64,000 nucleotides of DNA from an uncultured archaeon (GCA_963817525.1 CAWFOU010000007.1:928001-992000), one strand, 5' to 3'; positions 10,318 to 64,000 are shown, numbered from the stretch's first letter. Translations and numbers: made by a program. Notes: a model not told the origin generated them from the letters alone.

Positions 10318-10324
10318 GGCGTTT

Positions 10325-47785: not shown

Positions 47786-48108
47786 CCTGTGTCGGGAGGG
47801 CCGTGCACCTGGGCCTCAACCACCTCCTGAGGTTCTGCCCTAGCAGTAGTCGCCCCGCTTGAGATGGCGAGGATGCGCTCGCGGAGGCAGACGGAGGCCG
47901 ACGTGATCGAGCTGCGCTCGAGTGCCTCCGCCCACCTCCTGACGCTCTCGCCCTCCTCGAGTTAGTGGAAGTAGTGCGACTGCGTCAAGCTTAGGCTCCT
48001 CACTTTTCCCATTGTCGGCCTGATTGCTGTTGTCGACGAGGGGCAGGCGCTTTGAGGTGCGGCTGGGAGAGACGAATAATAGTTTTGACGGGGGGACTCG
48101 GGTCCGAC

Positions 48109-50055
48109 TTACGGCGGGATGCCTACCTTCCTGCAAAAGTCCAGAAAACGAGGGTCGTTCCTCATCGGCGCGTAGAGGGGGTCGATCTTTATTGTAAAGG
48201 GCCAAGAGTGCGTCTCTGCCTGCTGCACCAGCAGCTTGAACGCCTCATCCAGATTGCCAAGCGCGACCTGCATGAATAACTCCCCGCGGAGCAGTAACTC
48301 CCCGCGTAACCGGGAAGACTCCTTCCTGCGGGCGGACATCTCCTCCAGAGCGTCCTCGGCTTGCTTCCTCTTTCCCGCCAGTGCGAACAAGAGGCCCTGA
48401 GAAACGGCGACCATGGGCTCGTCGGGGCCGACGCCGCGGGCTGCATCGACCATCTTCTGCGCTTCCTCGAAATCGTTCCTCGCCATATAGTAATCGGCGG
48501 CGCAGAGGTAGACCTTCGGTTCCTTCGGGTTGAATTCCCTCATCCTTGCGAGGACGTCGCGGGCCAGGGCATCATCGCCGCCCCACGTCGCAGTTGTCGC
48601 GAGCATCTCGCCGGCGCCGAAGGATAGTGGGTCCAGCTCGTAAGCCCTCTTGAACATGAGCAAGGCTTGGTTGAGGGCGCGCATGATGCTGTCCACTACT
48701 CCGAGGGACATGTATGCTTCTGAGAGGTTTGGGTTGATCCGGACGGCGGCCTCGGCCTCGACGAGCGCCGCGTCGAACCGGTCTAGCATGAAATGGACGC
48801 CTGCCATTGACGAGTGGGCTTCCGCGAGGCCCGGGTCGAGCTCCAGAGCCTTCACAGCTGCCGCCTCGGCGTTCTTGGCGGCCGTAAGAAAATCCTCGTA
48901 TCCCATGATCCCTCTCGCGCGCCACGCGTCTGCGAGCCCGGCGTAGCCCCGCGCAAAAGTCGGGTCTTTTGCGACCGACCGCTGGAGGAGGGTCAGCGTT
49001 TCCTTCGTGCTCGCCTCGTTGGTGTCGTAGGAGAGGTGCATCGCCCTGAGGTACAAGGTGTACGCCTCGATATCGTGAGTCTCCTTGCGCGTCTCCCCGG
49101 AGAAGAACCCGGCCGAAAGCGCCGCCGCGACCTTCGAAGCAACGTCGCTCTGTATCGCGAAGATATCGCCAAGCTTGCTGTCGTAGTTTGACGACCAGAG
49201 ATGCTCTTCCGTGCGGGGGTCGATTAGCTGCACCGAAATCCTGATCCTGTCGCCCGCCTTCCTTACGCTTCCCTCGATTACCGACCCGACGCGCAGCTCC
49301 GCTGCGATCTCGGAGATCTTCTTCTCCTTCCTCCTGTAGTTCATGACGGAGGTTCTCGCAATCACCTTCAGCCCCTTGACCTCGGAGAGCCTCGCGATGA
49401 GCTCCTCGGTAAGTCCGTCCGCGAAGTATTCGTCGTTGGGGTCGAAGCTAATGTTCACGAATGGAAGCACGGCCAGCCTTTCTCTCGGTCCTGATTCTTG
49501 ATACCTCGGCTGTCCGCCGGTGGACCGCTCCTCCCCGGGCAGCTTGACCCTGTACACCGCGACAGGCAGCTCGACGTTCTTCAGCTCCACCTCTCCGACC
49601 TTCTCAATGTCAAGCTTGGTCTTGTTCCTGATCTGGTCGAACACCTGCTGGGAGATGCAAACCCCCCCAGGTTCAGCCAGCGGCTCGATTCTTGAGGCAA
49701 TGTTGACGGCGTCGCCGTATATGTCACTAGCTTCGTGGACGATATCCCCTACGTGGATTCCTATCCTCAACTCGAGCTTCCGGGTGGGGGGCACCTCCAG
49801 GTTGCGCTCTTTCATCTTCTGCTGGGTCTCGACGGCACTCAGCACGGCGTCGAGCGCGCTTCTGAACTCAACTAGGAACGCGTCGCCCATCGTCTTCACC
49901 TCGACACCCCCGTGCGTCAGGAAGGTCGGGCGGAGGAGGCTTCTATGCTCCTCCAGAAGCTCCAGGGCCAAAGATTCGTTGGCCTGGGAGAGGCGGGTGA
50001 AGCCTACCACGTCCGTGAACATTATCGCCGCGAGCCTTCTCTCACCACTTGCCAT
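48109..50055 (-). CDS. Class III adenylate cyclase with TolB-like and TPR domains
   Basis: IMFTDVVGFT, KTMGDAF, RIGIHVGD, DIYGDAVNIASRIE; LAVLPFVN...YFADGLTEELI; TPRs (ALELDPGLAEAH). Confidence 0.92.
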   Translation of the reverse strand: MASGERRLAAIMFTDVVGFTRLSQANESLALELLEEHRSLLRPTFLTHGGVEVKTMGDAFLVEFRSALDAVLSAVETQQKMKERNLEVPPTRKLELRIGIHVGDIVHEASDIYGDAVNIASRIEPLAEPGGVCISQQVFDQIRNKTKLDIEKVGEVELKNVELPVAVYRVKLPGEERSTGGQPRYQESGPRERLAVLPFVNISFDPNDEYFADGLTEELIARLSEVKGLKVIARTSVMNYRRKEKKISEIAAELRVGSVIEGSVRKAGDRIRISVQLIDPRTEEHLWSSNYDSKLGDIFAIQSDVASKVAAALSAGFFSGETRKETHDIEAYTLYLRAMHLSYDTNEASTKETLTLLQRSVAKDPTFARGYAGLADAWRARGIMGYEDFLTAAKNAEAAAVKALELDPGLAEAHSSMAGVHFMLDRFDAALVEAEAAVRINPNLSEAYMSLGVVDSIMRALNQALLMFKRAYELDPLSFGAGEMLATTATWGGDDALARDVLARMREFNPKEPKVYLCAADYYMARNDFEEAQKMVDAARGVGPDEPMVAVSQGLLFALAGKRKQAEDALEEMSARRKESSRLRGELLLRGELFMQVALGNLDEAFKLLVQQAETHSWPFTIKIDPLYAPMRNDPRFLDFCRKVGIPP

Positions 50056-50226
50056 GCCGACTTCTTCATGCTCGCCGGCTCGGTTCCCATAAAGTCGTTT
50101 CGGAGATTGCGCCGCGGGCGCATAATGGTTTCAGGGACTCCCGAGAGACAAAGAGCGGTTCCTCTCCGTCTCCTATGGCGCAACGCCGAGGAATAGCTTA
50201 AATCCCGAGTACGCAAACAAACACTG

Positions 50227-50658
50227 TTGCCGAAGGAGTCTGAGGAGAGACTCGCAAAGATGATAGCGAAAGTGTCGTTATTCTCGAATCTGTCTCAAAA
50301 GCAGCTCAAGAGCATCGCGAAAAGCGGAACCGAACGGGGTTTTGATTCGGGTCACGTGATAATCAAGGAAGGGGAGAAAGGAGTTGGCTTTTACCTGATA
50401 CTTGACGGAAAGGTGGAGGTGCGTAAGAAAGGGAAAATCCTTTCGACACTTTCGGCCGGCGAGTTCTTCGGGGAGATGGGGCTGATAGATGACCAGCCAA
50501 GGTCGGCCGATGTTGTGGCCGTCTCGTCCACGACGACCTTCTGTCTAAGCCCGTGGTCTTTCGCTGGTGCCGTTACGGGGAACCCTGAAATCGCACTGAA
50601 GATGATGAGGGTTCTCATCAATAGGCTGAGAACCAGTAGCAAGGCACTAACCGAATAA
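50227..50658 (+). CDS. Stand-alone cyclic nucleotide-binding protein
   Basis: IKEGEKG..FYLILDGKV, phosphate-binding cassette FGEMGLIDDQPRSADV; no HTH. Confidence 0.92.
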   Translation: MPKESEERLAKMIAKVSLFSNLSQKQLKSIAKSGTERGFDSGHVIIKEGEKGVGFYLILDGKVEVRKKGKILSTLSAGEFFGEMGLIDDQPRSADVVAVSSTTTFCLSPWSFAGAVTGNPEIALKMMRVLINRLRTSSKALTE

Positions 50659-50743
50659 CAACACGCCAATCCCTCGCGGCATGTCCTCGCAATTGAGGAG
50701 GCGTTAGTTCTCCCTCATGGGCTGGAACAAGACTCACAACCGC

Positions 50744-50929
50744 CTATGAGCAACAGTGATGTAGACAATCTGGGCATTCACAAGGGCAGGGACACCCACA
50801 ACGACCACATCTTCGTCCTTGGCTGTTCTTTGCTGTTATCTTTATCCACTTATTCTGGACTCCATCCCAGGACCACTCGTATAACTCCTGTGCGGCTTCT
50901 GACCCGTCTGGGGATTCGAGGGTCGACAT
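50744..50929 (-). CDS. Cys-rich metallothionein-like microprotein
   Basis: C-terminus CGRCGCPCPCECPDCLHHCCS (9 Cys, 2 His in 21 aa). Confidence 0.55.
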   Translation of the reverse strand: MSTLESPDGSEAAQELYEWSWDGVQNKWIKITAKNSQGRRCGRCGCPCPCECPDCLHHCCS

Positions 50930-51103
50930 TTCCTGTTCTGGCGGTTCTTAGGGACTATTGGGTCTTCGCCTTTTGAAGCGGTTCGTCCTCACAAGGTCAA
51001 TGCGGAATTCCAGCCCGGCTTCGCGGCCTCCTCCAGTTACAAATCTTGTCCGCTTCACCTGCATTCGTTTACGGACGATCGCTCGGCTTGAGCTAGGCCG
51101 ATG

Positions 51104-51511
51104 CTATCGCTTTACTTTTTCAGGGACAATCCCTGTGCTGTATATCGTCATCACGGTGTCCCTGAGGAGGTTCATGTCGTCGAGGCCGAAGTCCGGCTCA
51201 GCCGATATCAACATCACGTTCTTACCGCCGAGGTAGAAGGTCAGCACGTTTAGTCTCTCCCGCTTCACGAACGTGAACTGCATCCCCCCGAAGTACCGGT
51301 CCCAGGTCCTGTCAGTCCCAATCTGTATCGTCAGATTTGCCATCAGCCTGAGATTTTCACTGGCAGGCTCCATGGAGATGATGCCCTTTCTCATCCCCCC
51401 TGCAATCACCCTGCCAGTCTCGTCGAGAACTCCTGCGTACCTGACCCGTCGGTTGAACTTGAAGGCCTGAATGCATAGCTTATCCAGCGGGTAGGTCATG
51501 ATTCCATCCAA
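51104..51511 (-). CDS. Roadblock/profilin-like protein (thaumarchaeal DUF6659-like)
   Basis: VRYAGVLDETGRVIAGGMRKG...FGGMQFTFVKRER...LISAEPD. Confidence 0.7.
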   Translation of the reverse strand: MDGIMTYPLDKLCIQAFKFNRRVRYAGVLDETGRVIAGGMRKGIISMEPASENLRLMANLTIQIGTDRTWDRYFGGMQFTFVKRERLNVLTFYLGGKNVMLISAEPDFGLDDMNLLRDTVMTIYSTGIVPEKVKR

Positions 51512-51792
51512 GAATCTTCTCGTTCGTTCGGTATAAGACTTGATTGCTCCGCAGTCTTATGGGCTTCGAGCGAGAAGCAGCGGGGAGCCTGTCCATCCAT
51601 GCCTTCTACCACAGCCCAGCCCCCTATTCTCGGGCAATTTGGCCGGTCTGCCAACCTTTGGGAGGTTTCCGGGGGCTTTCGGAATGACTATTTTTGGGAG
51701 ACTTGTCACCGACAGAGTCGTCACCGCGGTGACAGTTCAGCCAGTGACATCTGCCATAACAACTAGTCAATCGTACTCTAACGCGAGTAACT

Positions 51793-52440
51793 ATGTCACA
51801 GTTCGCAAACAAGTGGGACAAGCCAAACAGCAGCGGATTCACAACGAGGATGCGGGATTCTGTAAAGAACCCGGGTCCCTTGAAGCCGAGACTGGACCTA
51901 GCCGTAAGGCAGATCCAAGTCCAAGTCGCAAAGCTCGACGGGACATGCGCAAAGCTGAGGGAGAGGGACGCCTCGATCTTCAACAAGATCGTGTCATCCA
52001 TCCAGAAGCATGACTCTCAGCACGCCTCGGTCTATGCGAACGAACTCTCGGAGATAAGGAAGATGAGCAGGATGGTCACACAGGCCAAACTGGCTCTCGA
52101 GCAGATAACCCTGAGGCTCAACACCGTCACCGAACTGGGCGACATCGTGGTGACCCTCACCCCTGCAATGTCAGTGATTCGCAGCGTCAGGCAAGGGCTT
52201 GTAAGCGTCCTTCCAGAGGCAGAAGGCGAGATCGGAGAGATATCAGGCCTGCTGAGCAGCATCCTGGTGGATGCGGGCACGGTGGGCGGGTACTCGCTGA
52301 ACTTCGAGGCTGCCAACGAGGACGCCGAGAAGGTCCTGGCAGAGGCTGCAGCAGTCGCCGAAAGCAGGATGAAGGAGAAGTTCCCAGAGATTCCCTCTGG
52401 GCTCCCCTCGATGGAAGGCTCGACGGAAAGCACATCGTAG
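51793..52440 (+). CDS. cdvB: ESCRT-III/Snf7-family cell division protein
   Basis: ASVYANELSEIRKM...LALEQITLRLNTVTELGDIVVTLTPAMSVI...AEKVLAEAAAVAE..MKEKFPEIP. Confidence 0.92.
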   Translation: MSQFANKWDKPNSSGFTTRMRDSVKNPGPLKPRLDLAVRQIQVQVAKLDGTCAKLRERDASIFNKIVSSIQKHDSQHASVYANELSEIRKMSRMVTQAKLALEQITLRLNTVTELGDIVVTLTPAMSVIRSVRQGLVSVLPEAEGEIGEISGLLSSILVDAGTVGGYSLNFEAANEDAEKVLAEAAAVAESRMKEKFPEIPSGLPSMEGSTESTS

Positions 52441-52681
52441 AGGCGAGAATGGAAAACGTGAGGGGCTTGGACCCGCTTTCGCGGGTCCTCCCCTCCAATC
52501 CTCCTCTTCTCGGACACGATTACAGCGCGAAAAGCATCCCGCCCTTGGGCGGTAAGGATTTGCCCCATCTTTAGCCGCCCGGATTCGGCCCGTGGTTTAT
52601 GCACGCGCCGAGGACACGGTCGACCAGCTGAAGATTGGCGACCTGCAAAGAATTTTAAACAGCGTTGAAGGCTACACGCGC

Positions 52682-52738
52682 ATGGCAAAGTCGAAAAAGG
52701 TCAAGAAGAAGGCTGCAAAAGGAAAGGCAACCAAATAA
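52682..52738 (+). CDS. 18-aa Lys-rich microprotein MAKSKKVKKKAAKGKATK
   Basis: BRE/TATA (AAAGAATTTTAAA, 52647-52659) 22 bp before the ATG; T-tract at about 52778. Confidence 0.55.
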   Translation: MAKSKKVKKKAAKGKATK

Positions 52739-53013
52739 GGCGCCCTGGGGTTCTTGGAGCGGAATGAGTCCGCCCTGTTTTTTGTCAGCTAGAAGAGGTG
52801 ACAGAGGTCAACCGATGGACTGGCTATCGGCGGACACTCCAAGAATCTGGCCCCCTGAACGCGTCGCTCTGAATACTTGCGAGAAGGACTTCTGCCAACC
52901 TTTTGCGGATTGAACCTCGACCTTTCATAGAGCGAAGAGAATCCATCCGGGTCGGTAGGGGACTAATGGGCGAACACCTAAGTATCCAGCCAGGGAGCGG
53001 CCCCTGAAGAATA

Positions 53014-53325
53014 ATGCCTCAATACGCCCAAATCAAGCTGACCAGTCCCGACCTCGACCAGCTAGAGAGACTTGCGTGGGAGATCAAAGAGATCGCGGAG
53101 AAGACTGGGGTCAAGAGCATAGGTCCGCAACCTCTTCCAACGAAGAGGCTGAAGATCACCACGAGGAAAGCCCCCACGGGCGAGGGCACCCACACGTTCG
53201 ACCATTGGCAGCTCAGGATTCACAGAAGGCTCATTTACATCGAGCCGAACGAAAGGGCGATGAGGCAGATTACGAAGCTGACGATTCCTGAGGACGTCAA
53301 GATAGAGCTCACTCTGACGAGCTAG
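53014..53325 (+). CDS. rps10: 30S ribosomal protein uS10
   Basis: GPQPLPTKRLKITTRKAPTGEGTHTFDHWQLRIHRRLI (archaeal type). Confidence 0.95.
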   Translation: MPQYAQIKLTSPDLDQLERLAWEIKEIAEKTGVKSIGPQPLPTKRLKITTRKAPTGEGTHTFDHWQLRIHRRLIYIEPNERAMRQITKLTIPEDVKIELTLTS

Positions 53326-53340
53326 AGTCCCTTACGCGTC

Positions 53341-53709
53341 TCAGCGGATGAATTCTACGCTCGGCAACCCTTCGAACGCCTTGTCCCCCGTCAGGAATTT
53401 CAGTCCCTCTTTCTTGGCGATGTGATATCCCATCGCGTCAGCATATGAGAGCTCAAGTTTTCGCAGCTCATAACGCAACTTCATGGCTGTCTCGACGTCC
53501 AAGAGTGAGAATTCGGTCTCGCGAGCGGAGTAGACTTCCAAGACCTCGTGCGCTGCCCTCGCCCCGTGCACTCTCAAGATGGCGTAGTAAATCTCCATCA
53601 GGTTGAGCCTCGTAAGGACGCCCGTGTTTTTCTCGAAGTAAGGAGCGTATCCGGGGCTGTCGCTGAGGTAGGCTAGGACGGAGTAGCTGTCGTAAAAGAA
53701 CTTAGCCAC
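53341..53709 (-). CDS. vapC: PIN-domain toxin
   Basis: FFYDSY, NLMEIY, LSYADA, LTGDKAF; overlaps the antitoxin gene. Confidence 0.9.
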   Translation of the reverse strand: MAKFFYDSYSVLAYLSDSPGYAPYFEKNTGVLTRLNLMEIYYAILRVHGARAAHEVLEVYSARETEFSLLDVETAMKLRYELRKLELSYADAMGYHIAKKEGLKFLTGDKAFEGLPSVEFIR

Positions 53710-53917
53710 GCCAGCCTTTCCTCATTTCTTCCTTGGCGGCCTGGAGATCCTCGATGGGATATTTCCCCCTCAGTTCGGTGATGTCGCTCACCTTGGTGAC
53801 CCGAATTTCGACCTCCTCCCCCACACGTAGCCCGTTCCTCTCGGCGGCTTCCTTGGGTATGACGACTCCAAGCGAGTTTCCCCACTTCTTTAGCCGAGCC
53901 TTGGTCTGCACGACCAT
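53702..53917 (-). CDS. vapB: AbrB/MazE-type antitoxin
   Basis: KKWGNSLGVVIPK...LRVGEEVEI. Confidence 0.9.
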   Translation of the reverse strand: MVVQTKARLKKWGNSLGVVIPKEAAERNGLRVGEEVEIRVTKVSDITELRGKYPIEDLQAAKEEMRKGWRG

Positions 53918-54023
53918 GATTATACACGTCTAATTCTAATAGTTAAATGTTTTCCCAAGCGCGCAAAACGCGGCTCAGAACACTCGCAGGCTCAAAGCCT
54001 ATGACAAGAAGAGCGTGATTCAC

Positions 54024-54062
54024 GCCTATTTGGGCGCAAATAGCTCAAATCGGGCTCTACAG
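54024..54062 (+). repeat. 39-bp imperfect direct repeat, copy 1 (copy 2 at 56100-56138)
   Basis: GCCTATTTGGGCGCAAATAGCTCAAATCGGGCTCTACAG vs GCCTATTCAGGCGTAAATAGCTCAAATCAAGCTCTAAAG, 33/39 by eye. Confidence 0.8.
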
Positions 54063-54199
54063 CGATTCTCAAAACACGTTCGGCGCCTGAGCGCCAAGGC
54101 AGGATTTAGACGGGAAGCACGGGAATCAGCCTGTATCCCTCTGAACCACCCAAGGGTCGATGGCACGCTTATATCACGCGGAATCCGGATTAATGGAGC

Positions 54200-54901
54200 G
54201 TGAACTGTCCCAAGTGTGGCACCGCCAACAGCGATGATGCGGTCTTTTGCAGTTCGTGCGGCGCGAGTCTGAAGGCTTCCAGCCCACCAACGACATCTCC
54301 GTCGCCAGGGGCCGCCCAGCCGGGAGGCAAGATGGATGAGATGAAGGCCGTGTTCAACAACGCGATAGCGCTGGTCAAGGACCCAGTGGCCTACATGACG
54401 CAAAACAAGGGCCAGTCTGTTCCCGTGAACTCCCTGATGATAAACTACGTTGCAATCCTCGCGCTCGTGCCGCTCGTCGGAAGGATCATCGGCGATCTCT
54501 TGTTCTACGGCGGCGCCGGTGTCGGATATTCGATTGCCGGGGCGATTGTCTCCTACATTCTTGACATAATCTCCGTCTTCGTGATCGGGATTGTAATCTG
54601 GAAGCTAGGGCCATCTTTCAATACGGTAACGGATCAGGCCAAGGCAACCGTTCTGGCGGCTTATGTGTACACACCGGTCTTCCTCATCGGAATATTGAAC
54701 ATCGTGCCGGCCCTCGGCTATCTCGCGATTTTGGGGTTGCTCTATGGCCTGTACATCCTCTACCGCGGGCTTCCGATATTGCTGAACACTCCGGCCGACA
54801 AGACGGTGATCTACGTGGTCGCGGTGCTCGTCGTCTCGATTATCATCCTCGCCGTTATATCGCTGATAATCGGTGGACTCGACGCGGCCGCCCTCAGATG
54901 A
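54200..54901 (+). CDS. Zinc-ribbon plus Yip1-domain membrane protein
   Basis: CPKCG...FCSSCG double Zn ribbon; 5 TM with AYVYTP, LYGLYILYRGL. Confidence 0.85.
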   Translation: MNCPKCGTANSDDAVFCSSCGASLKASSPPTTSPSPGAAQPGGKMDEMKAVFNNAIALVKDPVAYMTQNKGQSVPVNSLMINYVAILALVPLVGRIIGDLLFYGGAGVGYSIAGAIVSYILDIISVFVIGIVIWKLGPSFNTVTDQAKATVLAAYVYTPVFLIGILNIVPALGYLAILGLLYGLYILYRGLPILLNTPADKTVIYVVAVLVVSIIILAVISLIIGGLDAAALR

Positions 54902-55051
54902 GGAGCCGGTCCCAACTTCTAGTTCCTCAAACTAAGGTCGCCAGCAACCGCAGAAAGCTCGAAAAAACAGCAATAATTGTCATACGTGGGTTGTGGAATG
55001 AGTGCCAAGGGCAGATTTGGGCTTGCATGTTCAGCTTCGAATTGCGCCGTT

Positions 55052-55426
55052 CTATACGGTCAGAACAAGGTAGACTGAGAGCAACAGGGCGATTGCGAAC
55101 ATGCTGAGAGCAAGGGTTGTCTCTATGCTCTTGCTCGGTTCGTAGCGTCCTGTCTTGATTCTTTGCTGGTTCATGGTAAACCTGCTTAGTGCCAGCAGCT
55201 GCATGAGCCCTCCTGCTATGACCAGGGCGATTCCGATTATCGACGAGAGGTCATAGGAGGTGGTCGGAGCCGAGGGAACCAGAGACTTCACGATCAGATC
55301 GAACTTGGCCACCACGAAACCCAAGCCCATCACCGCGATGCTTGTACGTACCCACGCGAGAAAAGTTCGTTCGTTTGCGAGATGATCTCTTGCCGTAGAC
55401 GCTCTTTCGCCCGAGTCCGAAGCCAA
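55052..55426 (-). CDS. YidH/DUF202 membrane protein
   Basis: RDHLANERTFLAWVRTS. Confidence 0.92.
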   Translation of the reverse strand: MASDSGERASTARDHLANERTFLAWVRTSIAVMGLGFVVAKFDLIVKSLVPSAPTTSYDLSSIIGIALVIAGGLMQLLALSRFTMNQQRIKTGRYEPSKSIETTLALSMFAIALLLSVYLVLTV

Positions 55427-55825
55427 CTACGCGCCGACCGCCGACAGGACGATCGGTTCTAGCCCGGCGATGTTCTTGACCAGGTCCTCCGGGATGTCGT
55501 GACGTTCCCTGAGATATTCGGGGGAGTTGTACGATACTAGCACCTTTCCGCTTGAATCCTCGGAGACTAAGACCTTGAGGGGGAAATCGATTGCAACGGT
55601 TGGTGCAGCTATCATCAACGGAGTACCTGCCTTGGGGTTCCCAAAGATTACCAATAGAGTAGGATTCATCTCCAGCCCTGCCTTGGCGGCATCTCCACTG
55701 AAGTCTATTCTAGAGAAGATTGTCAAGCCGCGTGAGGTGATGGCCGACTCTAGCCCAGCAACGGTCTCCGCGAAGGGATACTTGCTGACCACCTGTACAA
55801 CTCCATTCACGGCGGTCGAGGCCAA
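55427..55825 (-). CDS. DUF302 protein
   Basis: IFGNPKAGTPLM...AIDFPLKVLV. Confidence 0.9.
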   Translation of the reverse strand: MASTAVNGVVQVVSKYPFAETVAGLESAITSRGLTIFSRIDFSGDAAKAGLEMNPTLLVIFGNPKAGTPLMIAAPTVAIDFPLKVLVSEDSSGKVLVSYNSPEYLRERHDIPEDLVKNIAGLEPIVLSAVGA

Positions 55826-55882
55826 ACCAGCAATAGAACCCTATTTTCGTCCTATTAAATGACGAGGCTTTGATGAGTATAC

Positions 55883-56060
55883 TGCAGGGGCAGGTGGGAT
55901 TCGAACACTCCATTGCCCAAGACCGTACAGACCAATGAAGATTGTTTGTGCTTGTATTCGGGCCGAATTAGCAACGGTATGACTCAATCTAGCGACGAAT
56001 GCGCGAGGGGTTCTAAGGACTCGAACCCTAACGAAGACGGCCCGACGAGACTCGAAACCC
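55883..56060 (-). repeat. Cluster of degenerate tRNA T-arm/acceptor fragments (att-site remnants)
   Basis: Minus strand reads GTTCGAATCCCACCTGCCCCTGCA (55883-55906, Leu-like end), GGGTTCGAGTCC (56017-56028) and GGGTTTCGAGTCTCGTCGGGCCG (56038-56060); no D or anticodon arms. Confidence 0.5.
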
Positions 56061-56288
56061 TCCCAACTGAAGACAGTTACCACAATAAGTCTGAGTCAAG
56101 CCTATTCAGGCGTAAATAGCTCAAATCAAGCTCTAAAGTTGTGGACCGGGGGGGACTCGGACCCCGGGGAGTCTGGACCCCAATCTTTTCCTGCGTATTG
56201 GGTTCCATTGTATCCTAATCTGATATGAGCCGGGCTTAAAAATACCACGGATCCCCAGTTTCTTTCGGCCATTACGGCTTACCAAGTA

Positions 56289-56333
56289 CGAGCCCGACGG
56301 GACCCGCCCCTGAACAGGTTCTCAAAGTGGATT
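56289..56333 (+). repeat. 45-bp direct repeat copy 1 (copy 2 at 58209-58253; 18-bp core again at 59561-59578), tRNA-Lys/Arg 3'-end-like core
   Basis: 41/45 identity by eye; reverse complement of the core is CCCGTCGGGCCCG. Confidence 0.8.
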
Positions 56334-56422
56334 GCCGCGGAGCAACCAACCAGGTTCGAATCGTCCAGGGGAGATTTTGAAATGACTAGTTCACATATCG
56401 AAATAACTAGTTCAACAATTCC

Positions 56423-56452
56423 TTGACAGCGGCCTCCGCGCCAGAATATCAT
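56423..56452 (+). promoter_or_regulatory. Bacterial sigma70-like promoter
   Basis: TTGACA-N18-TATCAT upstream of the SDR gene; preceded by two GAAATRACTAGTTCA repeats (56379, 56400). Confidence 0.5.
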
Positions 56453-56494
56453 ACTAAACAGTTAATTATTAGGCAAAGCAACCCTAACCTCGCA

Positions 56495-57253
56495 ATGACA
56501 ACTCACATGGAACGGTACCAAGGTAAAAAAGTCGTGATCACTGGCGGCACCAGCGGCAGCGGGCTCGCCACGGCGAAGATGCTCCTCGATGGGGGTGCGC
56601 GTGTTCTGGTGACGGGGCGGTCGCACGCCGGCCTGGAATCGGCGCAGAAAGAGATTGGAAAGGACGCCATCGTGGTTCCCAGCGACGCGCGCTCGTTGAA
56701 GGACATCGACGCCCTCGCCTCTCGGGTGAAGGCCGAGTTCGGCACCTTCGACCTGCTCTTCGCCAACGCCGGATTTGCCCTCTTTGCCCCTCTCGAAAAC
56801 ACGACCGAGGCCATGTACGACGAGATGTTCGATCTGAACGCCAAAGGACCGTTTTTCGCGGTGCAGAAGCTCGCGCCGCTGATAAACCGGGGGGGCGCCG
56901 TCGTCCTCACGACCTCCATCGCAAACGTCAAGGGAAGTCCCAACCAAGCGACCTACGCAGCGTCCAAGGCCGCGCTGCGCTCATTTGCTCGCGTGCTCGC
57001 CGCTGAGCTTCTGCCTCGGGAGATTCGCGTCAATGCGGTAACGCCCGGTCCCATCGACACGCCGATCATCGGCAAAGTGTTTCCCGAGAAAGGCGTGGCC
57101 GCCCATGTCAGGGAGCAGGCGATCGCTACTAATCCGATGAAGCGCTTTGGGATGCCGGAGGAAATTGCGAAGGCCGTTCTCTTCCTCGCATTCGACGCGA
57201 CCTTCACCACCGGTTCCGAACTTCCGGTCGATGGCGGTGCGTCGCAACTCTGA
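56495..57253 (+). CDS. Short-chain dehydrogenase/reductase
   Basis: TGGTSGSG, NAG, YAASK, IRVNAVTPGPIDT, VDGG; start ATG 56495 or 56507. Confidence 0.93.
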   Translation: MTTHMERYQGKKVVITGGTSGSGLATAKMLLDGGARVLVTGRSHAGLESAQKEIGKDAIVVPSDARSLKDIDALASRVKAEFGTFDLLFANAGFALFAPLENTTEAMYDEMFDLNAKGPFFAVQKLAPLINRGGAVVLTTSIANVKGSPNQATYAASKAALRSFARVLAAELLPREIRVNAVTPGPIDTPIIGKVFPEKGVAAHVREQAIATNPMKRFGMPEEIAKAVLFLAFDATFTTGSELPVDGGASQL

Positions 57254-57289
57254 AAGCAGTACGCGAAATGCATCGACACTTGATCTGAT

Positions 57290-57399
57290 GAGCCAAGTGC
57301 GTTGACGGCACCGGTGAGTCACCCTCAACGAACTCGGCAATCTTGTAGGCCTTCCGGCGTTTTGCGCCGACCGGTGACGAGTGCGATCGAATGTTCCAT
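57290..57399 (-). pseudogene. N-terminal remnant of an oxidoreductase gene divergent from tetR
   Basis: GGAGG-N5-ATG then MEHSIALVTG, after which the Rossmann motif breaks down. Confidence 0.4.
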
Positions 57400-57525
57400 G
57401 GGCGCCTCCGTGGTAAACGGTGAAGGTCGAGTCCTGAGGCCCCGCGAGGCAGTGTCGGCTTGCTAATTACGAACTATTCGGTTTTTATATCGGTGCGACG
57501 GCCTTGTCCAGGAGATTTAAACTAA

Positions 57526-58158
57526 ATGTTGCAAAATGACGCCAGGCCGCGTGGACGGCCGCGCAGCTTCGACGAGAGGTTCGCGCTGGAAAAGGCGATC
57601 CAGGTGTTCTGGTCGAAGGGCTACGACGGAGTGACGATCGACGACCTCGTCGCAGGGATGGGCGTGGGACGGCCGAGCCTGTATTCCGTCTTCGGAGACA
57701 AGCGGACGTTGTTCTTGCGCGCCCTTAGGGCGTACGCAGAGACGAAAGGGGCTCTCGCTGCGAAGGCACTCCTCTCGCCGCGCACTCTTCGCGACTCGCT
57801 CGCCGCCTTCCTGAGGAACGCCGTAGAAACTGCGACCCAGGAGGGATCCGCTCGGGGATGTCTTCTCGAGTGCGTCGCGCCGCTTGTGAACGATGCTGAG
57901 GTCCGGCAGTTCCTACAGAACGCGGCCGCTCACGCCGTAGGACTAGTGGAAGGTCGTTTCCGGGATGCGATCAGCGCGGGCGAAATCCCGTCCGACTTTC
58001 CTGTGGCCATCCGCGCAAGCCAGGTCGTTGATTTTGCTCGTGGCCTTACCATGGGTGCGCTGATAGGCACGCCGCGCAAGACGCTTCTCAGGGATGCCGA
58101 GGAAGCGGCCGACTTGGTGCTCCTGCCGCGGCGTGTAAATGCGGCGCCAGAACGTTGA
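57526..58158 (+). CDS. TetR/AcrR-family regulator (bacterial type)
   Basis: RGRPRSFD...FWSKGYDGVTIDDL...PSLYSVFGDKRTLF...RGCLL. Confidence 0.93.
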   Translation: MLQNDARPRGRPRSFDERFALEKAIQVFWSKGYDGVTIDDLVAGMGVGRPSLYSVFGDKRTLFLRALRAYAETKGALAAKALLSPRTLRDSLAAFLRNAVETATQEGSARGCLLECVAPLVNDAEVRQFLQNAAAHAVGLVEGRFRDAISAGEIPSDFPVAIRASQVVDFARGLTMGALIGTPRKTLLRDAEEAADLVLLPRRVNAAPER

Positions 58159-58294
58159 TGACGGCTGGGTAGCCATCGCTCGCAAGGCGGCCGGCCCCGG
58201 AATGGTAGCGGGCCCGACGGGGCCCGCCCGTGAACAGGTTCTCGAAGTGGATTCCGGGAAAGTTAGCTCGCGGATCTGCGCGGCGCCAGTTCGG

Positions 58295-58951
58295 TCAGGC
58301 CGGTGATTCCTTCAGGACTTGCGCCAGTATGCGTCGCTCCGCCTTTATGCGATGCACCACCAGCGTGGAGCTTCGCATCCCGAGTCTCCTCCCGAGCTCG
58401 TTAGAGCTTATCCTCTTTGGAAGGTCATAGTATCCAAGGTTGAAGGCAGCGATTAGGACCTTTCTTTGCTTCTCCGTAAGATTGGCTAGAGGCGAAGTCA
58501 GGGAGAATCTCGCATCTCCAAGAGAGATCACCTTGTATCGCATGCCTGTCTCGTCGACGATCTTCCGAAAGCGCTTAACCTCATTCACATTCCCTAGGAA
58601 TGTCGCTCTAATCCGTCCATCTCTAATCTCAAACGGGAGGGTAAGGTATCCGCCCGTCACGAACATCTTGGGCGTCGGACCTTCTGAGCCGTACTTTCTT
58701 CGCAGGAAGTAGATGTGCGCTCCGCCTTTCTCTTCCTCCAAGTGTTGGGCGACGGTGGAGTCGTCTAAGAGTACATCCTCAAGCTTGGTTGCGCCTCCTT
58801 TGAATTTCACCCGGCATATCATCGCGACCTCGTCCGGTTCCTCCCTTAGGAAGCTGACGACCTCAAATAGCTCGATTTTCCTTAGCGACGACTCTGCACC
58901 CATGAGTCTACCCAGTTCTTCCGTGGTTGACTCCAGCACGAGCCTGCGCAT
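58295..58951 (-). CDS. Archaeal regulator with C-terminal HTH_10 (Bat-type) domain
   Basis: LTEKQRKVLIAAFNLGYYDLPKRISSNELG...HRIKAERRI. Confidence 0.9.
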   Translation of the reverse strand: MRRLVLESTTEELGRLMGAESSLRKIELFEVVSFLREEPDEVAMICRVKFKGGATKLEDVLLDDSTVAQHLEEEKGGAHIYFLRRKYGSEGPTPKMFVTGGYLTLPFEIRDGRIRATFLGNVNEVKRFRKIVDETGMRYKVISLGDARFSLTSPLANLTEKQRKVLIAAFNLGYYDLPKRISSNELGRRLGMRSSTLVVHRIKAERRILAQVLKESPA

Positions 58952-59046
58952 GCAAAGACAACGACAGTGCGGGAAATATCAATCTTTCTAGCACGCTAGC
59001 ATATTAGCTACAACACTCTTATGAGATTCTCTAATATTTCGAAACA

Positions 59047-59439
59047 ATGACTGCGGAAACCAAACTCGTGATTCGCCCCCAGGGAATCCTGATCGCCTGT
59101 GTGCTGATGATTGTGTTTGGCATCGCGGAGGTTGCCACAGGCTTCACCGGTCATTTTCTCGGCGGCATTTCGGTTGCCACGTCGACGGAATACACAATCG
59201 CAGCGGCCGCGACCGGTTCCTGCTACAGCCTGGCTGGTCTTTTCATTCTAACGATGAGGAAGCGGGGCGCGGCGCTCGGCATCGCCTTTCTCTGTGCTGA
59301 ACTCCTCGGACGGGTCTACCTTGTCTCGACCGGTCTCTACCCGTTCAGCGGAACTGATGAGAGTGCGGTTATCGCGGGAAGCATAATCGCTGTACTCTTC
59401 GCACTCTACATTGGACTGAGGTGGAATAGATTCAGGTGA
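59047..59439 (+). CDS. 4-TM membrane protein, divergent from the HTH_10 regulator
   Basis: Four hydrophobic segments; TTAT box about 25 bp upstream. Confidence 0.72.
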   Translation: MTAETKLVIRPQGILIACVLMIVFGIAEVATGFTGHFLGGISVATSTEYTIAAAATGSCYSLAGLFILTMRKRGAALGIAFLCAELLGRVYLVSTGLYPFSGTDESAVIAGSIIAVLFALYIGLRWNRFR

Positions 59440-59695
59440 CTCAAATCGCAAAACTCGAGACGGTCCGACGTCCTGGAATGGCCTCTGCGTCTCAGGTCTG
59501 CTCCGCAATAGCATAATTCGGCCTCTTTCTGACAAAACAAGCTCAGAACAGGCCTTTTATTAGCGGGCCCGACGGGGCTCGTCACCTATAGGTGGCGGAC
59601 CCGAGGAGGACCTGGAGGCTTTTATGCGGTCTAGGATATCCAGGAGTCCTCGCCGAGTGGAGTAGCATGTGGGGGGAGATGAAGGAGGGGAAGCT

Positions 59696-60505
59696 TCACG
59701 TGCGGGAGCTCAAGCACTTCCACGACAGACTAGTAGCCTCCGCGCGCTGAGCCTCAAGGTATTCCCTGATGTATTCGCACGCCTGCTCGGGGATGAAGGT
59801 GAAGTAGCTCCTCTTGCTCTTGCTGATCGGCCTGCGGATGACGAGCTTGGCGGGCACCTTCGTGAACGCAGCGCTCTTTTGCGCAATATGGAACTCCAGC
59901 TCCGGAAAGTCGCCAAGCTTCAGGCCGTCGGCACCGTAGATGGTGCCCATCACTTCGGGGCGTATCCCCGAGAACGCGATTAGGGAGCATGCCGCCTTCG
60001 CTCGCAGGTCGGCGTGGTTGAGGATCCTGTTCAGCTCGTCCGGAGAAGGCGTCTTCTCGTTCTCGTACTTGTTCGGGGTGTATGGGATGCGGATCTTCTT
60101 GGTGACGACGATGTCGTTGAACGAGAACCACGACTTCAGCGCCTTGATGTACGACTCGATGAGGGTGCCCGCGTTCCCCCTGGCTTCGAGCATCGACACC
60201 ATGTCGATGAGGAACGAGGTAACCTCCTTGGGGTTCTTCCTGGCCAGGTCGGAGGGGGTGGTGGCGTACTCCCTGCAGATGTTCCCTATTCGCCTGAAGC
60301 AGACGGAGGCATACGTCTGAGAACCTCTCTTGGCGTTCTCGTACCAGCGGAGAAAGGTCTCGTCCTCCTCCAGAAGGTGGACGTAGGGCGATCTCTTAGG
60401 TAGCACAGCATGCTGGTGCGGTGCGGCATATAACGTCTGGGTCCAGACCCGGGGAAGTGTGGACCGGGGGGGACTCGGCCGATTATTCGTCTGAGTCTTC
60501 GGCAT
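59696..60505 (-). pseudogene. C-terminally truncated archaeal tyrosine recombinase/integrase
   Basis: RWYEN..RGS, YIKALKSWF, LIAFSGIRPEV (catalytic Arg I), SKSKRSYFTF; ends before H-x-x-R and the catalytic Tyr; true start probably near 60410. Confidence 0.82.
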
Positions 60506-60638
60506 CCGATGCCCAAAGACCCATCGCTCGCAATTATATCTAGAGCCTGAGATAAAAAGGTCACGGTCGCGGATTCTGCTTGATTAAGATACATGGATTC
60601 CTAAATATTGATAAGATGCGACCAGAACATTCGTCTCG

Positions 60639-61187
60639 TTGTCTCAACGAAGGGAACGAATTAGGGCGGGCCTTAACGTTCCTCACGTTGAGCAAGGCGA
60701 AGAGGAATATTACTGCGTCCCTGCGTGTATCAGCATGGTAGTTCGGTTCCACGTTGAGACTATGGGGGCGGAAATACCGAACCCTCCTGTTTCCGAGCTA
60801 GCGAGCGCTATGGGAACGGACGCATCAGGCACTTCTCTTAACGACGTTGTGAGGGCCAACCGGACACTTCGGGGCCGTTCTCACTTCTTGGAACTTAAGC
60901 CAAGAAGGAACTGCGAGTTTCGGGACATCAAAAAGCAAGTTCAGGAAGAAGGAAGGCCCGTTATAGCATGGATTAAGCCGCACAGGGAAGACCGAATCGG
61001 GCACTCAGTAGTCGTCAAGGAAGTTGACCCTTCGGGGTTAAAACTGACTATTGATGACCCTGCTAGAGGCGAATGGGTGTTAGAAGTGACCGAGTTCCTT
61101 CGGGTTTGGGGAAACTCCCACTACGTTTTAATCGAGGCGACGGTGGACAACAAGCCTCCGCAATCGGATTTACGTGAATTTGAATGA
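60639..61187 (+). CDS. Stand-alone C39-like cysteine peptidase
   Basis: VPHVEQ...YCVPACISMV, GHSVVV, IDDPARG (Gln, Cys, His, Asp of the papain-like fold); no signal peptide. Confidence 0.82.
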   Translation: MSQRRERIRAGLNVPHVEQGEEEYYCVPACISMVVRFHVETMGAEIPNPPVSELASAMGTDASGTSLNDVVRANRTLRGRSHFLELKPRRNCEFRDIKKQVQEEGRPVIAWIKPHREDRIGHSVVVKEVDPSGLKLTIDDPARGEWVLEVTEFLRVWGNSHYVLIEATVDNKPPQSDLREFE

Positions 61188-62110
61188 TGAAAGACGCGAC
61201 AGAAGCCATCGAGCGCTACGTGGACAACACGTATGGCGACCTGATTACCACAGGGAAGCCCTTACATTACAAGAGCCGAGGCTGGGTCGCCGAACTCAAG
61301 TCGGATTATCCACGCACGATTAGGGACGATAAAGACCCGCACTCGACCTTCGTTAAGTTCATCACGCTGAGAGAGCTGGGGGAAGTCACGTTGTCGGATA
61401 ACAACGAGATAGAGGGAACTCCCAGAAAGGAACTCGTTGAAAGGCTCACATCTTCCCTAACTCAGTGGAGGCAACTAGTCGAGGAAATCATACTCAGCAC
61501 TTCGTCGAATAGGCTTGCTAAAATTGGGCGACTCAAGGACACCCTGAATCCTATAGTTCTTGTCGTTGACCACTTCTCACGTGAAGGGGTTGACTTGCTC
61601 TCCTACGAAGAGATTAGGAAAGACCCTCGCTCAAAGAAGATGCTCCGTTGGCTCGAATTCTTAGAGCAAATCAAGCTAGTAGCGAAGAAAGACGACGGAT
61701 TCACCTATGGGAACAAGTTCAGCGAGCTGGAGAAGCAACTCGGCCCGGGAGAGAACTTGACCGACACGGTAATCTCCTATATCATGCAGAACTACTACGC
61801 CACGATGCGCCAAGCCCTAGAGATATGGCGCTTCGACCCGTATCTTCACATGGAGACCTGCTATTTCGGCCCGTCACTCCAAGCCGGGAGGCTTCTATAC
61901 AGAAAGGAAGCGTCCTTGCTCGCACTCTATCACAAGTGGTATCAGAAGCAATCTCCGAACTACAGGATAAGGCCCATACTTGACCAACTTCAAGAAGTGG
62001 GTTTGCTAGAGAAAGAAGGCGAGTATTGGGTTGGCTCGAAAGACATGTGGAAGACTCTCGCCCCGCTGAAAGAGAAAGTTCCGCAAGAGATAGCTCCGCT
62101 GAAAGCGTGA
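61184..62110 (+). CDS. Hypothetical protein (308 aa), possible winged-helix segments
   Basis: ATGA overlap with the peptidase; WLEFLEQIKLV and ILDQLQEVGLLEKEGEYW resemble wHTH wings. Confidence 0.7.
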   Translation: MMKDATEAIERYVDNTYGDLITTGKPLHYKSRGWVAELKSDYPRTIRDDKDPHSTFVKFITLRELGEVTLSDNNEIEGTPRKELVERLTSSLTQWRQLVEEIILSTSSNRLAKIGRLKDTLNPIVLVVDHFSREGVDLLSYEEIRKDPRSKKMLRWLEFLEQIKLVAKKDDGFTYGNKFSELEKQLGPGENLTDTVISYIMQNYYATMRQALEIWRFDPYLHMETCYFGPSLQAGRLLYRKEASLLALYHKWYQKQSPNYRIRPILDQLQEVGLLEKEGEYWVGSKDMWKTLAPLKEKVPQEIAPLKA

Positions 62111-62514
62111 TTAACCAAATTAGGCAGTGGGAAAGGTTGAGACTCAAAGCAACCCAAATCGTCATAACTATCGTAGTCATTGCGCTAGTGGGCGGCGGCG
62201 CAATTCTTCTTTACGATGAGACGTCGGGGCCGTCTGTGAGTTCCAGCGTGTCCACAAATGCTAGCTTGGTAAGCGAGCTGGATTGCTTTGGAAGCAATGC
62301 ATATACTACTGTCGCGCTCCGTGTAAACTCAACCTCAACCTCCACCTCTATCACGACTTATTCGGGACCTGGCGAGATGGAATTTGATTATCGAACTAAT
62401 ACGACTGTGGCCGCGCCTGTCGGTACCGTAGTAACTACAACCACTACTTTCGCTTCCAGCTCGGGCAACGTGGTTTCAGAGTGGGAAGCCGTAACCTGCA
62501 CTTACGTGAAATGA
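62107..62514 (+). CDS. Membrane-anchored Ser/Thr-rich protein
   Basis: GTGA overlap with the previous stop; one TM then a Ser/Thr-rich domain with 2 Cys. Confidence 0.65.
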   Translation: MINQIRQWERLRLKATQIVITIVVIALVGGGAILLYDETSGPSVSSSVSTNASLVSELDCFGSNAYTTVALRVNSTSTSTSITTYSGPGEMEFDYRTNTTVAAPVGTVVTTTTTFASSSGNVVSEWEAVTCTYVK

Positions 62515-62526
62515 CAAGATATCGAC

Positions 62527-62853
62527 TCATCTAGGCTTCTTGACGAGCCTCTTCTTGACCCGGTTCTCCCACTCATGATAGTCAATCAGGCCGCGCTCTT
62601 CTAGCAGTTCGGCGAGAGAGGTTATCATGTTGTCCTGCATGTCAAGCTCGCCCGCGAGGTTATCCGTTGAGATCGACCCGGCCTTCAACGGTCGGCCTTC
62701 TGCGGCCCCTAGATACCCCTGCATGGTGAGATACGCGATGACGATGTTCCTGATTACTTCGGAGTCTCCGTCGCCAATCTTTCCCTTCATCTCAGCGTCG
62801 ATGATTGCCCATAGGCCTTCTGGAAGAGTGACTAGCGCCCTTCTCCGAGGCAT
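62527..62853 (-). CDS. CopG/RHH-type DNA-binding protein
   Basis: ATG at 62853 (TGATG overlap with the transposase); RRALVTLPEGLWAIID...DSEVIRNIVIAYL. Confidence 0.72.
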   Translation of the reverse strand: MPRRRALVTLPEGLWAIIDAEMKGKIGDGDSEVIRNIVIAYLTMQGYLGAAEGRPLKAGSISTDNLAGELDMQDNMITSLAELLEERGLIDYHEWENRVKKRLVKKPR

Positions 62854-63731
62854 CAGGCCCTTACCTCCACTTGGACCGCCCCGGCCTTCTCCACGACCTC
62901 TTGAATCGTCTTCTCCGCCGTCGCGTTCTGAATCAGTTGCTTCCAGCCTTTCATCTCTATCCCTGCCGCCTGCGCGGGGGTCTTCCCGATACTTGAGTGC
63001 GTCCGACAGAAGTTGTAGTTCACGACGTAGCCTTCGAGAAGGTTCTTGGGATTCTTCAGGCCCCGCATCGGCTTCACTCTGTCCTTGAGCGTCCCATGAA
63101 CTCGCTCCACTATGTTGTTGGTCTCCCTCGCTCGAATCCCGACCCTTCTCACCCACTCGACCTTGTTCCCCTTGTATCGGGTGTAGAAGACTTTCTTCAT
63201 CGCCTCGTCGTATGCGAAGGAGCCGTCGGTGTAGAAGGCCGTCGGCCTCTGCTTCTCAAGGGCCTGTGTGAAGACCTTGATTGCATCCGCGCTCGTCCGC
63301 GAGTTGCTAACCATGCTTGCGACTATGAACCGAGTGTCTTCGTCGATGGTCTCCCAGAACCACTTCTCTTCTCCGCCGACCTTTATCGCCGTCTCGTCGT
63401 GGTGATACTTGCCTCCCAACTTGGGCGCGAGGGTCTTCACGAACTCGCTGACCATCTCGCCATACTTAGAGACCCAATACCAAACCGTAGAGGCGGCAAC
63501 GGTCTCGCCGAAAATGTCTCCGAGCTGTCTCTGAACCTTGCGAGTGGAGAGACCGTCATAGTAGAGGTTCAGCGCCGTCACGATGACATGCTCGTTCACC
63601 CTCATTCGAGCGAAGGAGACATGGTTATCGTAGAAGTGGTGAGAGCAGTTCTTGCACTGGAACCTCTGGACCCCCATCTTGACCCCGTGTTTCACGACTT
63701 TTTCCGACCCGCAGAACTTGCATGCGTTCAT
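62853..63731 (-). mobile_element. IS6-like DDE transposase with N-terminal Zn ribbon
   Basis: CKFC...QRFQCKNC, GLSTRKV, HHDETAIKV, YTDG, NNIVERVHGTLK, YNFCRTH..GKTPA; terminal repeats not identified. Confidence 0.88.
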
Positions 63732-64000
63732 TTGCCAACAGGGTGTATATTGGCATTAGACCTATTTATATCCATTGTATAGCCAGTTGATATCCATGTA
63801 TCTTAATCAAGCAGAATCTCATAGTTCGAGCTGCCGTGGTCGAGACGACGCCCTGGAAGAAGGGCCGGAAGGACTGACGAACCGCTAACCAACACGCATC
63901 TTAGCGAAACCAACTACATCCTTACCACGCCGCAATCCAACTGAAGAGCCGTGAAAGTACTAATTCTTCATTCGCCCTAGCCGTGGTAACGGTTGACCCA

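Follow-up and report, generated by a model that had tools for sequence, protein, structure and literature searches.

Probable remnants of tRNA-targeting integrated elements, stacked in the chromosome of an uncultured archaeon

Introduction

In the thaumarchaeal survey of Krupovic et al. (2019; PMC6563490), 39 of 68 integrated elements lie in the 3′ ends of tRNA genes, including intron-bearing ones; the attachment (att) sites have a median length of 17 bp and can be as short as 8 bp, and arrays of elements at one site are known. Tandem integration and loss of the integrase after integration have been described in archaea (PMC8371274), and module exchange between tandem elements and nested insertion are reported for archaea, including Thaumarchaeota (PMC6563490, PMC8371274). 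Here, we describe a region (positions 55883–60478) of a 64,000-nucleotide (nt) stretch of DNA from an uncultured archaeon (GCA_963817525.1 CAWFOU010000007.1:928001-992000; the whole stretch is referred to below as the window). The region contains a stack of short pieces resembling tRNA 3′ ends, part of a tyrosine integrase gene and two small gene modules. It is probably a mosaic of dead integrated elements, left by integrases of ∼440 residues that recombined with the 3′ ends of tRNA genes. Tandem or nested integration is already known, and the locus adds a clear example of it.

The region shares with the thaumarchaeal elements, as described in PMC6563490, a tyrosine integrase close to a tRNA 3′ end, short att sites (21 nt here), intron-bearing targets, small cargo, and tandem or nested insertion. 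It differs from the elements described there in that all its units are dead, no intact tRNA is in view, attachment cores of three types are found within 280 nt, and one module is bacterial. The region retains a tyrosine recombinase, although as an inactive stump, and direct 21-nt repeats, one of which has the integrase beside it in the orientation typical of its family. What is missing is an intact tRNA at the integrase-proximal junction, which is the expectation for a second member of a tandem array, as observed in a related locus (L020, see below).

In streptococci, integrative and conjugative elements (ICEs) undergo accretion with integrase-less, att-flanked elements (cis-mobilizable elements, CIMEs). 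The region resembles CIMEs in having integrase-less, att-bounded modules beside an integrase-bearing element, and an array that would have arisen by site-specific recombination into a resident att site. Unlike the bacterial, conjugative system of streptococci, the region shows no transfer genes. Another relevant group comprises the “suicidal” integrases of the SSV type from hyperthermophilic archaea (PMC7253208, PMC8371274), with which the region has in common an archaeal tyrosine integrase, tRNA-derived att sites and inactive integrase fragments in the chromosome. In the SSV type, the att site is located inside the integrase ORF (open reading frame), and integration splits the gene into int(N) and int(C) parts. 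In contrast, the core here is upstream of the gene and no int(C) is present in the window.

Results and Discussion

Direct repeats and the integrase stump

A repeat search identified direct repeats in the region (Table 1). The Ala-type core, TGTGGACCGGGGGGGACTCGG, is present in two exact copies of 21 nt at 56140–56160 and 60458–60478, separated by 4318 nt. Between these copies are the members of a 21-nt Lys-type family at 56286, 58206 and 59561 (cores C, B and A, respectively), and cores C and B are part of a longer direct repeat of 45 nt (56289–56333 and 58209–58253; 91% identity, 4 mismatches, starts 1920 nt apart). With up to 3 mismatches allowed, the window contains 3 copies of the Lys-type core compared to 0.07 expected from shuffled sequences, and 2 copies of the Ala-type core compared to 0.01 expected. 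The non-tRNA half of the 45-nt repeat is found in the window only at its two known places, with 0 expected. In alignments, cores B and C share the core and 25 nt on the same side, and cores A and B have 18 nt in common before diverging.

Table 1. Features of the region in window coordinates. R1 is the tRNA 3′-end covariance model described in the text.
Feature	Position	Strand	Basis or remark
Leu-like tRNA 3′ end (T-loop, T-stem, acceptor strand)	55886..55910	-	R1 12.0 bits; Leu label putative
T-loop-like spacer word GGGTTCGAGTCC	56006..56035	-	R1 11.3 bits at 56006-56030; follows Lys-like D
Lys/Arg-like core D, part of T-loop kept	56038..56059	-	Repeat family D15; sequence reading; not R1
Ala-type core copy 1, putative distal (attR-type) end of dead element	56140..56160	-	R1 20.8 bits at 56142-56166; exact repeat; L014 match
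Conserved arm block: GTCTGRA-type repeats, 18-nt box GTATTGGGTTCCATTGTA, TTAAAAATACCACGG	56161..56288		Aligns with L003, L004
Lys-type core C + 25-nt shared arm, left 45-nt copy	56289..56333	-	R1 13.1 bits at 56289-56307
Module 1: SDR 56495-57253 + TetR 57526-58158	56334..58208	+	Pfam; bacterial DNA; sigma-70-type promoter 56423-56452
Lys-type core B + shared arm, right 45-nt copy	58209..58253	-	R1 19.3 bits at 58209-58231
Module 2: HTH_10 regulator 58295-58951 (-) + 130-residue membrane ORF 59047-59439 (+)	58295..59439		Pfam
Lys-type core A	59561..59581	-	R1 12.5 bits at 59564-59582; alignment with B
Tyrosine recombinase, N-terminal half	59696..60406 (ORF 59696-60505)	-	XerA, PHROG integrase, alignment to relatives
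Ala-type core copy 2, 51 nt upstream of int, no tRNA body beyond	60458..60478	-	Exact repeat; L020 precedent
Probable distal arm of right-hand neighbour element	60479..60566		TAAAAAGGTCACGG 95 nt from core start

The integrase ORF (59696–60505) matches the archaeal XerA model of NCBIfam (E = 1e-5) and an integrase family of PHROGs, the only PHROGs match obtained, and no Pfam family at E ≤ 0.01. Its full-length database relatives consist of 432–446 residues, and it aligns only with their residues 1 to ∼230. The C-terminal motifs that we read as catalytic residues in the alignment are present in these relatives and missing from the window protein, and no C-terminal integrase half was found anywhere in the window. 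Thus, the integrase remnant noticed previously is indeed the N-terminal half of a tyrosine recombinase of ∼440 residues, and the stump, probably a deletion product, is inactive since it lacks the C-terminal catalytic residues. The gene most likely begins with the GTG at 60406, the position at which the relatives start, which would place the Ala-type core 51 nt upstream of the gene and not inside it. Standard models recognize the family poorly: in a scan of four full-length relatives, only XerA, XerS and Phage_integrase matched, weakly, and a single relative (P0008) exceeded the PF00589 cut-off (30.2 bits compared to 27.1).

A genome scan for relatives of the integrase yielded 24 loci (L001–L024) from Nitrososphaerales/Thaumarchaeota, Thermoplasmatota, Bathyarchaeota and one Methanobacteriota assembly, most of them from metagenome assemblies; the genome of the window is not among them. 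An intact tRNA on the same strand ends 57–176 nt upstream of the integrase gene (int) in 14 of 24 loci according to ARAGORN, in 15 when introns are allowed, and in 20 when the intron-bearing tRNAs found by manual reading in L003, L007, L014, L017 and L018 are included. No tRNA precedes int in L002, at the second copy of L020 or in L021, and L023 has no upstream sequence. The targets are tRNAs for Gly, Lys, Pro, Val, Met and Arg. A T-loop-like spacer word (TTCGAGNC, CGAATAC, TTCAAATAC or GTCTGAATCC) is located 4–16 nt past the tRNA end. Of the 18 loci listed, 14 have a clear word as judged by eye, 3 have part of it and 1 lacks it; these loci form approximately nine related groups and are, therefore, not independent. 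The layout of the family is a tRNA, a 57–176-nt spacer with a T-loop-like word, and then int. The word also occurs in the window at 60420–60450 and 56006–56035, and is a candidate integrase-binding site that may pair with the T-loop of the tRNA itself.

tRNA origin of the cores

Since the full tRNA model of Rfam cannot score internal fragments, we built a covariance model (R1) covering the T-arm and the acceptor 3′ strand (25 positions), trained on 14 tRNAs of the related loci. R1 has 18 matches at E ≤ 10 on both strands of the window. Six of these, every one on the minus strand, are located within 55886–59582, an interval that makes up 3.6% of the space searched. The binomial P is 2.7e-5, and becomes 2.1e-3 when the three Lys copies are treated as one. 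The single matches are weak (E between 0.03 and 3 each), and the pieces at 56038 and 60458 are outside the six. What argues for a tRNA origin is, instead, that the pieces cluster, share one strand and match real tRNAs. The stack of repeats and tRNA-3′-end-like pieces described in an earlier note on this DNA is present in full, and every listed piece is on the minus strand in the tRNA sense.

The matching tRNAs belong to related genomes rather than to the host's own set. Of the 25 nt at 56141–56165, 23 are identical to the 3′ end of an L014 tRNA. ARAGORN assigns this tRNA as Ala(GGC) with introns allowed and as Gly(CCC) by default; manual reading of its acceptor stem reveals the G3:U70 pair typical of tRNA-Ala. 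When reverse-complemented, the Lys-type core GCGGGCCCGACGGG is identical (14/14) to the final 14 nt of the tRNA upstream of int in both L003 and L004. By manual reading, this is a tRNA-Lys(UUU) with two introns, and ARAGORN calls the L004 copy as intron-bearing with a different anticodon. The Leu-like piece, the leftmost remnant and ∼60 nt from the start of a host DUF302 gene, agrees exactly over 14 nt with the T-arm of a real tRNA from L024. Within 280 nt, cores of three tRNA types are packed together. These comparisons support the assignment of the pieces as putative attachment cores, derived from tRNA 3′ ends, of a tRNA-targeting tyrosine-integrase family.

In agreement with the earlier note, no intact tRNA was called by ARAGORN in the whole window, or at the default threshold with introns allowed in 55500–61000. 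No Rfam family was detected at the gathering threshold in the whole window or at E ≤ 10 in 50000–64000. A separate Rfam search of 55870–56350 returned only a chance-level match to the tRNA-like mascRNA model (E = 1.5). ARAGORN at lowered thresholds produced 22–30 calls, which were judged to be noise and set aside.

The left part of the stack could also be read as what is left of a chromosomal cluster of tRNA genes for Ala, Lys and Leu, all three in one orientation, whose 5′ parts have been lost to mutation, and not as att remnants at all. The 3′ ends at 56142, 56040 and 55886 are spaced by 102 and 154 nt, which fits tRNA genes with short spacers, and a TATA-like word ∼97 nt from both Ala cores is at a promoter distance for a tRNA-sized unit. 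However, tRNA-sized bodies ending in the Ala cores have neither a cloverleaf nor excess stability (z = −0.46 and −0.07), and no tRNA is called at the default threshold even with introns allowed. Survival of only the 3′ 20–25 nt is the trace of recombination and not of decay, and decay leaves unexplained the exact second 21-nt copy beside the integrase. We consider such a cluster very improbable.

Junction types and a tandem precedent

On the minus strand, Ala copy 2 (60478–60458) is followed by the T-loop-like word GGGTCTGGACCC and, after a 51-nt spacer, by the integrase stump. No tRNA body is found from 60479 on by ARAGORN, with introns allowed or not. The same arrangement exists in L020, a tandem array (1–11300) with two intact integrases (249–1499 and 9807–11267) at one intron-bearing tRNA. 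There, a tRNA ending in CTCCGAGCCCAT is followed by the first int, 9.5 kb of sequence, the same 13-nt core (9735–9747) without a tRNA body, and the second int. By analogy, the window's core-then-int arrangement without a tRNA body matches the internal junction of a tandem array, and from the L020 junction we infer that 56140–60478 is the second member of such an array at a tRNA-Ala.

The spacer word may help to distinguish the two kinds of junction. By manual reading, it is present downstream of Ala copy 2 and of Lys-like D, and absent after Ala copy 1, Lys cores A, B and C, and the Leu-like piece, a distribution that fits proximal versus distal junctions. Ala copy 1 has no spacer word on its tRNA-downstream side and keeps the T-arm on the element side, so it looks like a distal junction. 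The word following Lys-like D would, in turn, mark a proximal junction, that of a Lys-type element that has lost its integrase. The “T-arm fragment” at 56017 that had been listed as a separate remnant is this same word, typical after tRNA ends in the relatives, and belongs to the Lys-like piece at 56038.

Elsewhere in the window (47824–48100, minus strand), there is another dead junction of the integrase family. Residues 5–61 of the integrase match 47982–47824 in a tblastn search (40% identity, E = 0.001, with an internal stop), and GGACCCGAGTCCCCCCG, which resembles the Ala core, is located ∼100 nt upstream of this fragment, immediately after the stop codon of an adenylate-cyclase/TPR gene.

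Cargo modules

As previously proposed, the Lys/Arg-like repeats bracket two modules, SDR + TetR (1920 nt between the 45-nt copies) and HTH_10 + membrane protein; the repeats and the Pfam assignments agree on this. In module 1, 56452–57264 and 57370–58136 are 80% and 78% identical, respectively, at the nucleotide level to one Paraburkholderia largidicola plasmid locus, in which the TetR gene is on the other side of the SDR gene and in the other orientation. Thousands of proteins are homologous to the SDR at 80–98% amino-acid identity; the few named ones are all bacterial (Roseiarcus, Candidatus Cybelea and a mine-drainage metagenome). A promoter scan identified a promoter-like site, TTGACA-18-TATCAT, preceding the SDR gene, and the GC content of the module is 0.60, compared to 0.50–0.54 in its immediate neighbours. 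Judged by these sequence comparisons, the SDR + TetR module is bacterial DNA, and none of this DNA extends beyond the two 45-nt copies that enclose it. The HTH_10 protein of module 2 has 105 homologues, the named ones from Bathyarchaeia and Thaumarchaeota, and the membrane ORF was not assigned to a Pfam family. The shared arm of the 45-nt repeat is found in none of the fetched loci. None of 6 ORFs scanned with PADLOC in 58295–63156 was matched.

We considered whether the SDR + TetR insert might be an assembly chimera, with bacterial reads joined into an archaeal contig. The identity to a Burkholderiales plasmid and the GC difference indicate that the DNA is foreign, and most of the matching loci come from metagenome assemblies. 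However, the insert is flanked on both sides by an archaeal-type 45-nt repeat whose copies differ at 4 positions, which an assembler could not have created by collapse, and its gene order is unlike that of the Paraburkholderia locus. A chimera is thus hardly credible.

Comparison with integrons

The earlier note offered two descriptions of the stack, repeated integration and integron-like accretion at att sites. Repeated integration is the best reading, given the tandem array of L020, whereas the integron analogy is not supported. Integrons have been reported in Archaea (Ghaly et al., PMC9668308), and the region is similar to integrons in having ordered small gene units bounded by recombination sites beside a tyrosine recombinase, and in having taken up DNA from a foreign domain. 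In integrons, each cassette ends in an attC site, an imperfect palindrome folded as a single strand. In contrast, the region has no attC-type folded site, its sites are derived from tRNA 3′ ends, and no integron-integrase model matched the four full-length relatives. The stump does not contain the region where the extra domain of IntI would lie. Integron cassettes lack promoters and are expressed from a common one, whereas module 1 contains a promoter-like site of its own as well as a TetR gene, and in module 2 the HTH_10 gene is on the opposite strand to its partner.

In its strongest form, the analogy would make the locus an integron-like capture platform, at which a family integrase acting in trans inserts circles that carry one or two genes and no integrase into tRNA-end sites, and so builds a cassette array able to take up foreign and even bacterial DNA. 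This proposal would account for the three co-oriented Lys cores bounding two two-gene modules without integrases, and for the cross-domain DNA of module 1. Comparable arrangements are found in two relatives. In L002 (8170–9990), three direct copies of the same Lys core, GCGGGCCCGACGG, spaced by 463 and 1273 nt, surround a 115-residue ORF and a DUF1059 ORF beside an intact integrase, and in L004 a bPH_2 ORF lies between two tRNA-end fragments, one of them weaker. However, the two 45-nt copies have no common stable fold (an 8-bp GC hairpin in B, z = −1.7 and −2.2; none in C, z = +0.4 and +0.9), and it is this, together with the lack of an integron-integrase match, that leaves “integron-like” unsupported. 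Both modules contain a regulator gene, and module 1 has kept a sigma-70-type promoter. The local integrase is dead and paired with an Ala core, not a Lys core, and the loss of integrases from ordinary tandem elements, as reported in PMC8371274, gives the same picture. Capture of this kind is, in our view, improbable. We attach similarly little credence to the related proposal that, in Nitrososphaeria-type archaea, tRNA-end sites (a palindromic CGGGCCCG core and a T-loop-like word) and the family integrases may constitute a cassette platform distinct from integrons that inserts and shuffles integrase-less circles with one or two genes, bacterial DNA included. If true, it would account for the arrays in the window, L002 and L004.

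A proposed history of the region

We favour repeated integration followed by decay, which could have proceeded as follows. The two Ala cores would be the ends of one 4.3-kb element, the second in a tandem array whose first member, with its integrase and the intact tRNA-Ala, would lie to the right, beyond the window. Inside this element, which is now dead, the Lys-type core would have been used at least twice more; it corresponds to the tRNA end preceding int, and hence the probable target, in L003 and L004. These events may have been catalyzed in trans by a Lys-specific integrase or may reflect homologous recombination across the 45-nt site, and would have added the two integrase-less two-gene modules, bacterial SDR + TetR and archaeal HTH_10 + membrane protein. 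The pattern of sharing among B, C and A is compatible both with two insertions, using related sites, into a single resident Lys-type site and with homologous recombination across the 45 nt. Deletion would then have removed the C-terminal half of the integrase. To the left of 56140, Lys-like D and its spacer word, as well as the Leu-like piece, would be junctions of older elements. No part of the region is still able to move by itself.

Several observations weigh against this history. There is no intact tRNA in the window according to ARAGORN and Rfam, and both internal modules lack an integrase. Read along the tRNA-sense strand, three distal-type Lys cores come first, followed by the proximal-type D, an order that a single simple array would not give. 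Distal repeats are mostly not found in the relatives, which leaves their element ends mostly undefined: a repeat of at least 12 exact nt was absent in 14 loci, and a distal copy of the last 18 nt (≤ 3 mismatches) was absent in 16 loci except for one weak candidate in L017; the repeated core of L020 came to light separately. In L002, the last core is 62 nt upstream of an intact 436-residue integrase, and antisense to the usual layout of the family; the palindrome CGGGCCCG in the core may permit such a reverse orientation. Lastly, 56138–56310, which contains an Ala-like core, the GTCTGRA repeats, the 18-nt box, TTAAAAATACCACGG and a Lys/Arg-like core, aligns with L003 (13060–13240) and L004 (13838–13930), where the flanking genes are different. 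Recurrence of the block with different neighbours suggests that some of the cores were perhaps imported together and not made here.

This last observation is an argument for a further alternative, in which the stack was not built at this locus. Ala copy 1, Lys core C and perhaps D and the Leu-like piece would then be fossil cores or binding words within the arm of one element family that arrived once, and only the 21-nt Ala pair and the 45-nt pair would record local events. In L003 and L004, the block is at the far end of 3.3–4.0-kb units of int and 1–2 cargo genes (AbiEii and DUF6577 in L004), with the 9-nt TCGGGCCCG at the candidate ends, and is followed by more tRNA-end fragments on the minus strand. 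The window has just two occurrences of a TATA-like word, TAAAAANNNCACGG, at distances of 97 and 95 nt from the beginnings of the Ala cores, and the same word is 96 nt from a Lys core in L002. T-loop-like words recur in the spacers of the family, so that some of the “fragments” may be binding sites. However, a host gene (51107–51556) is common to the window, L003 and L004 near their sites, and the three could be orthologous hotspots instead of carriers of one element, although synteny of the window with L003 and L004 is limited to this one gene. In addition, the similarity of the block is patchy, at ∼60% in the alignment. The flank to the right of Ala copy 2 has no significant similarity to 56161–56300, to the right of copy 1 (local alignment score 13, shuffle mean 15), which leaves only the positional TATA-like motif. 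A single import seems unlikely to us. The earlier note lists the pieces at 56140 and 56289 separately; both are real, and with the intervening arm they form one block and may have arrived together.

Two further features of L003 and L004 are worth recording. Strong tRNA 3′ ends (31.4 and 30.5 bits) are found on the minus strand at 13376–13400 in L003 and 14625–14649 in L004; they are outside the training set, are not called by ARAGORN, and lie within 45 nt of sequence that L003 and L004 share at 91% identity. The cargo of L004 (11537–13487), an AbiEii-type nucleotidyltransferase toxin gene and its DUF6577 partner, looks like a two-gene toxin-antitoxin or defence module.

Surroundings of the region

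The left flank looks like host backbone, with genes for ribosomal protein S10 (53014–53325), a PIN/MazE pair, Yip1, DUF202 and DUF302 up to 55825. The pair, a PIN-domain toxin and a MazE/AbrB-type antitoxin (53341–53917, minus strand), directly follows the S10 gene. To the right of 60478 are a peptidase_C39-like gene, unassigned ORFs and an insertion sequence, which would belong to a neighbouring element running past the end of the window. The Peptidase_C39-like protein and two overlapping ORFs of 308 and 162 residues, without a match in Pfam (E ≤ 0.01), PADLOC or PHROGs, occupy 60639–62514 and are probably cargo of that element. A DDE transposase gene (DDE_Tnp_IS240, 62853–63731, minus strand) overlaps an ORF on the same strand (62527–63156); a transposase 34% identical to it is encoded in L004 (6438–7634), upstream of the L004 tRNA.

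On a larger scale, the GC content of the window drops at ∼42000, from 0.60 (1–42000) to 0.556 (42001–64000). The low-GC part encodes a Cache histidine kinase, an adenylate cyclase with TPR repeats and a cNMP-binding protein. A 514-residue protein with an ice-binding-like domain (PF11999, E = 7e-42) is encoded at 33592–35136.

Biological implications

The integrase family is widespread in metagenome-assembled Nitrososphaerales, Thermoplasmatota and Bathyarchaeia, and standard models hardly recognize it. The conserved layout of tRNA, T-loop-like word and int provides a handle for finding the elements of this family and for mapping their ends. In module 1, what appears to be a recent transfer from bacteria to archaea, of an SDR gene with its TetR regulator, is tied to a defined pair of recombination-site copies, which makes this route of cross-domain uptake testable. 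If our reading is right, the region is a readable record of small integrative elements piling up and decaying in an archaeal chromosome.

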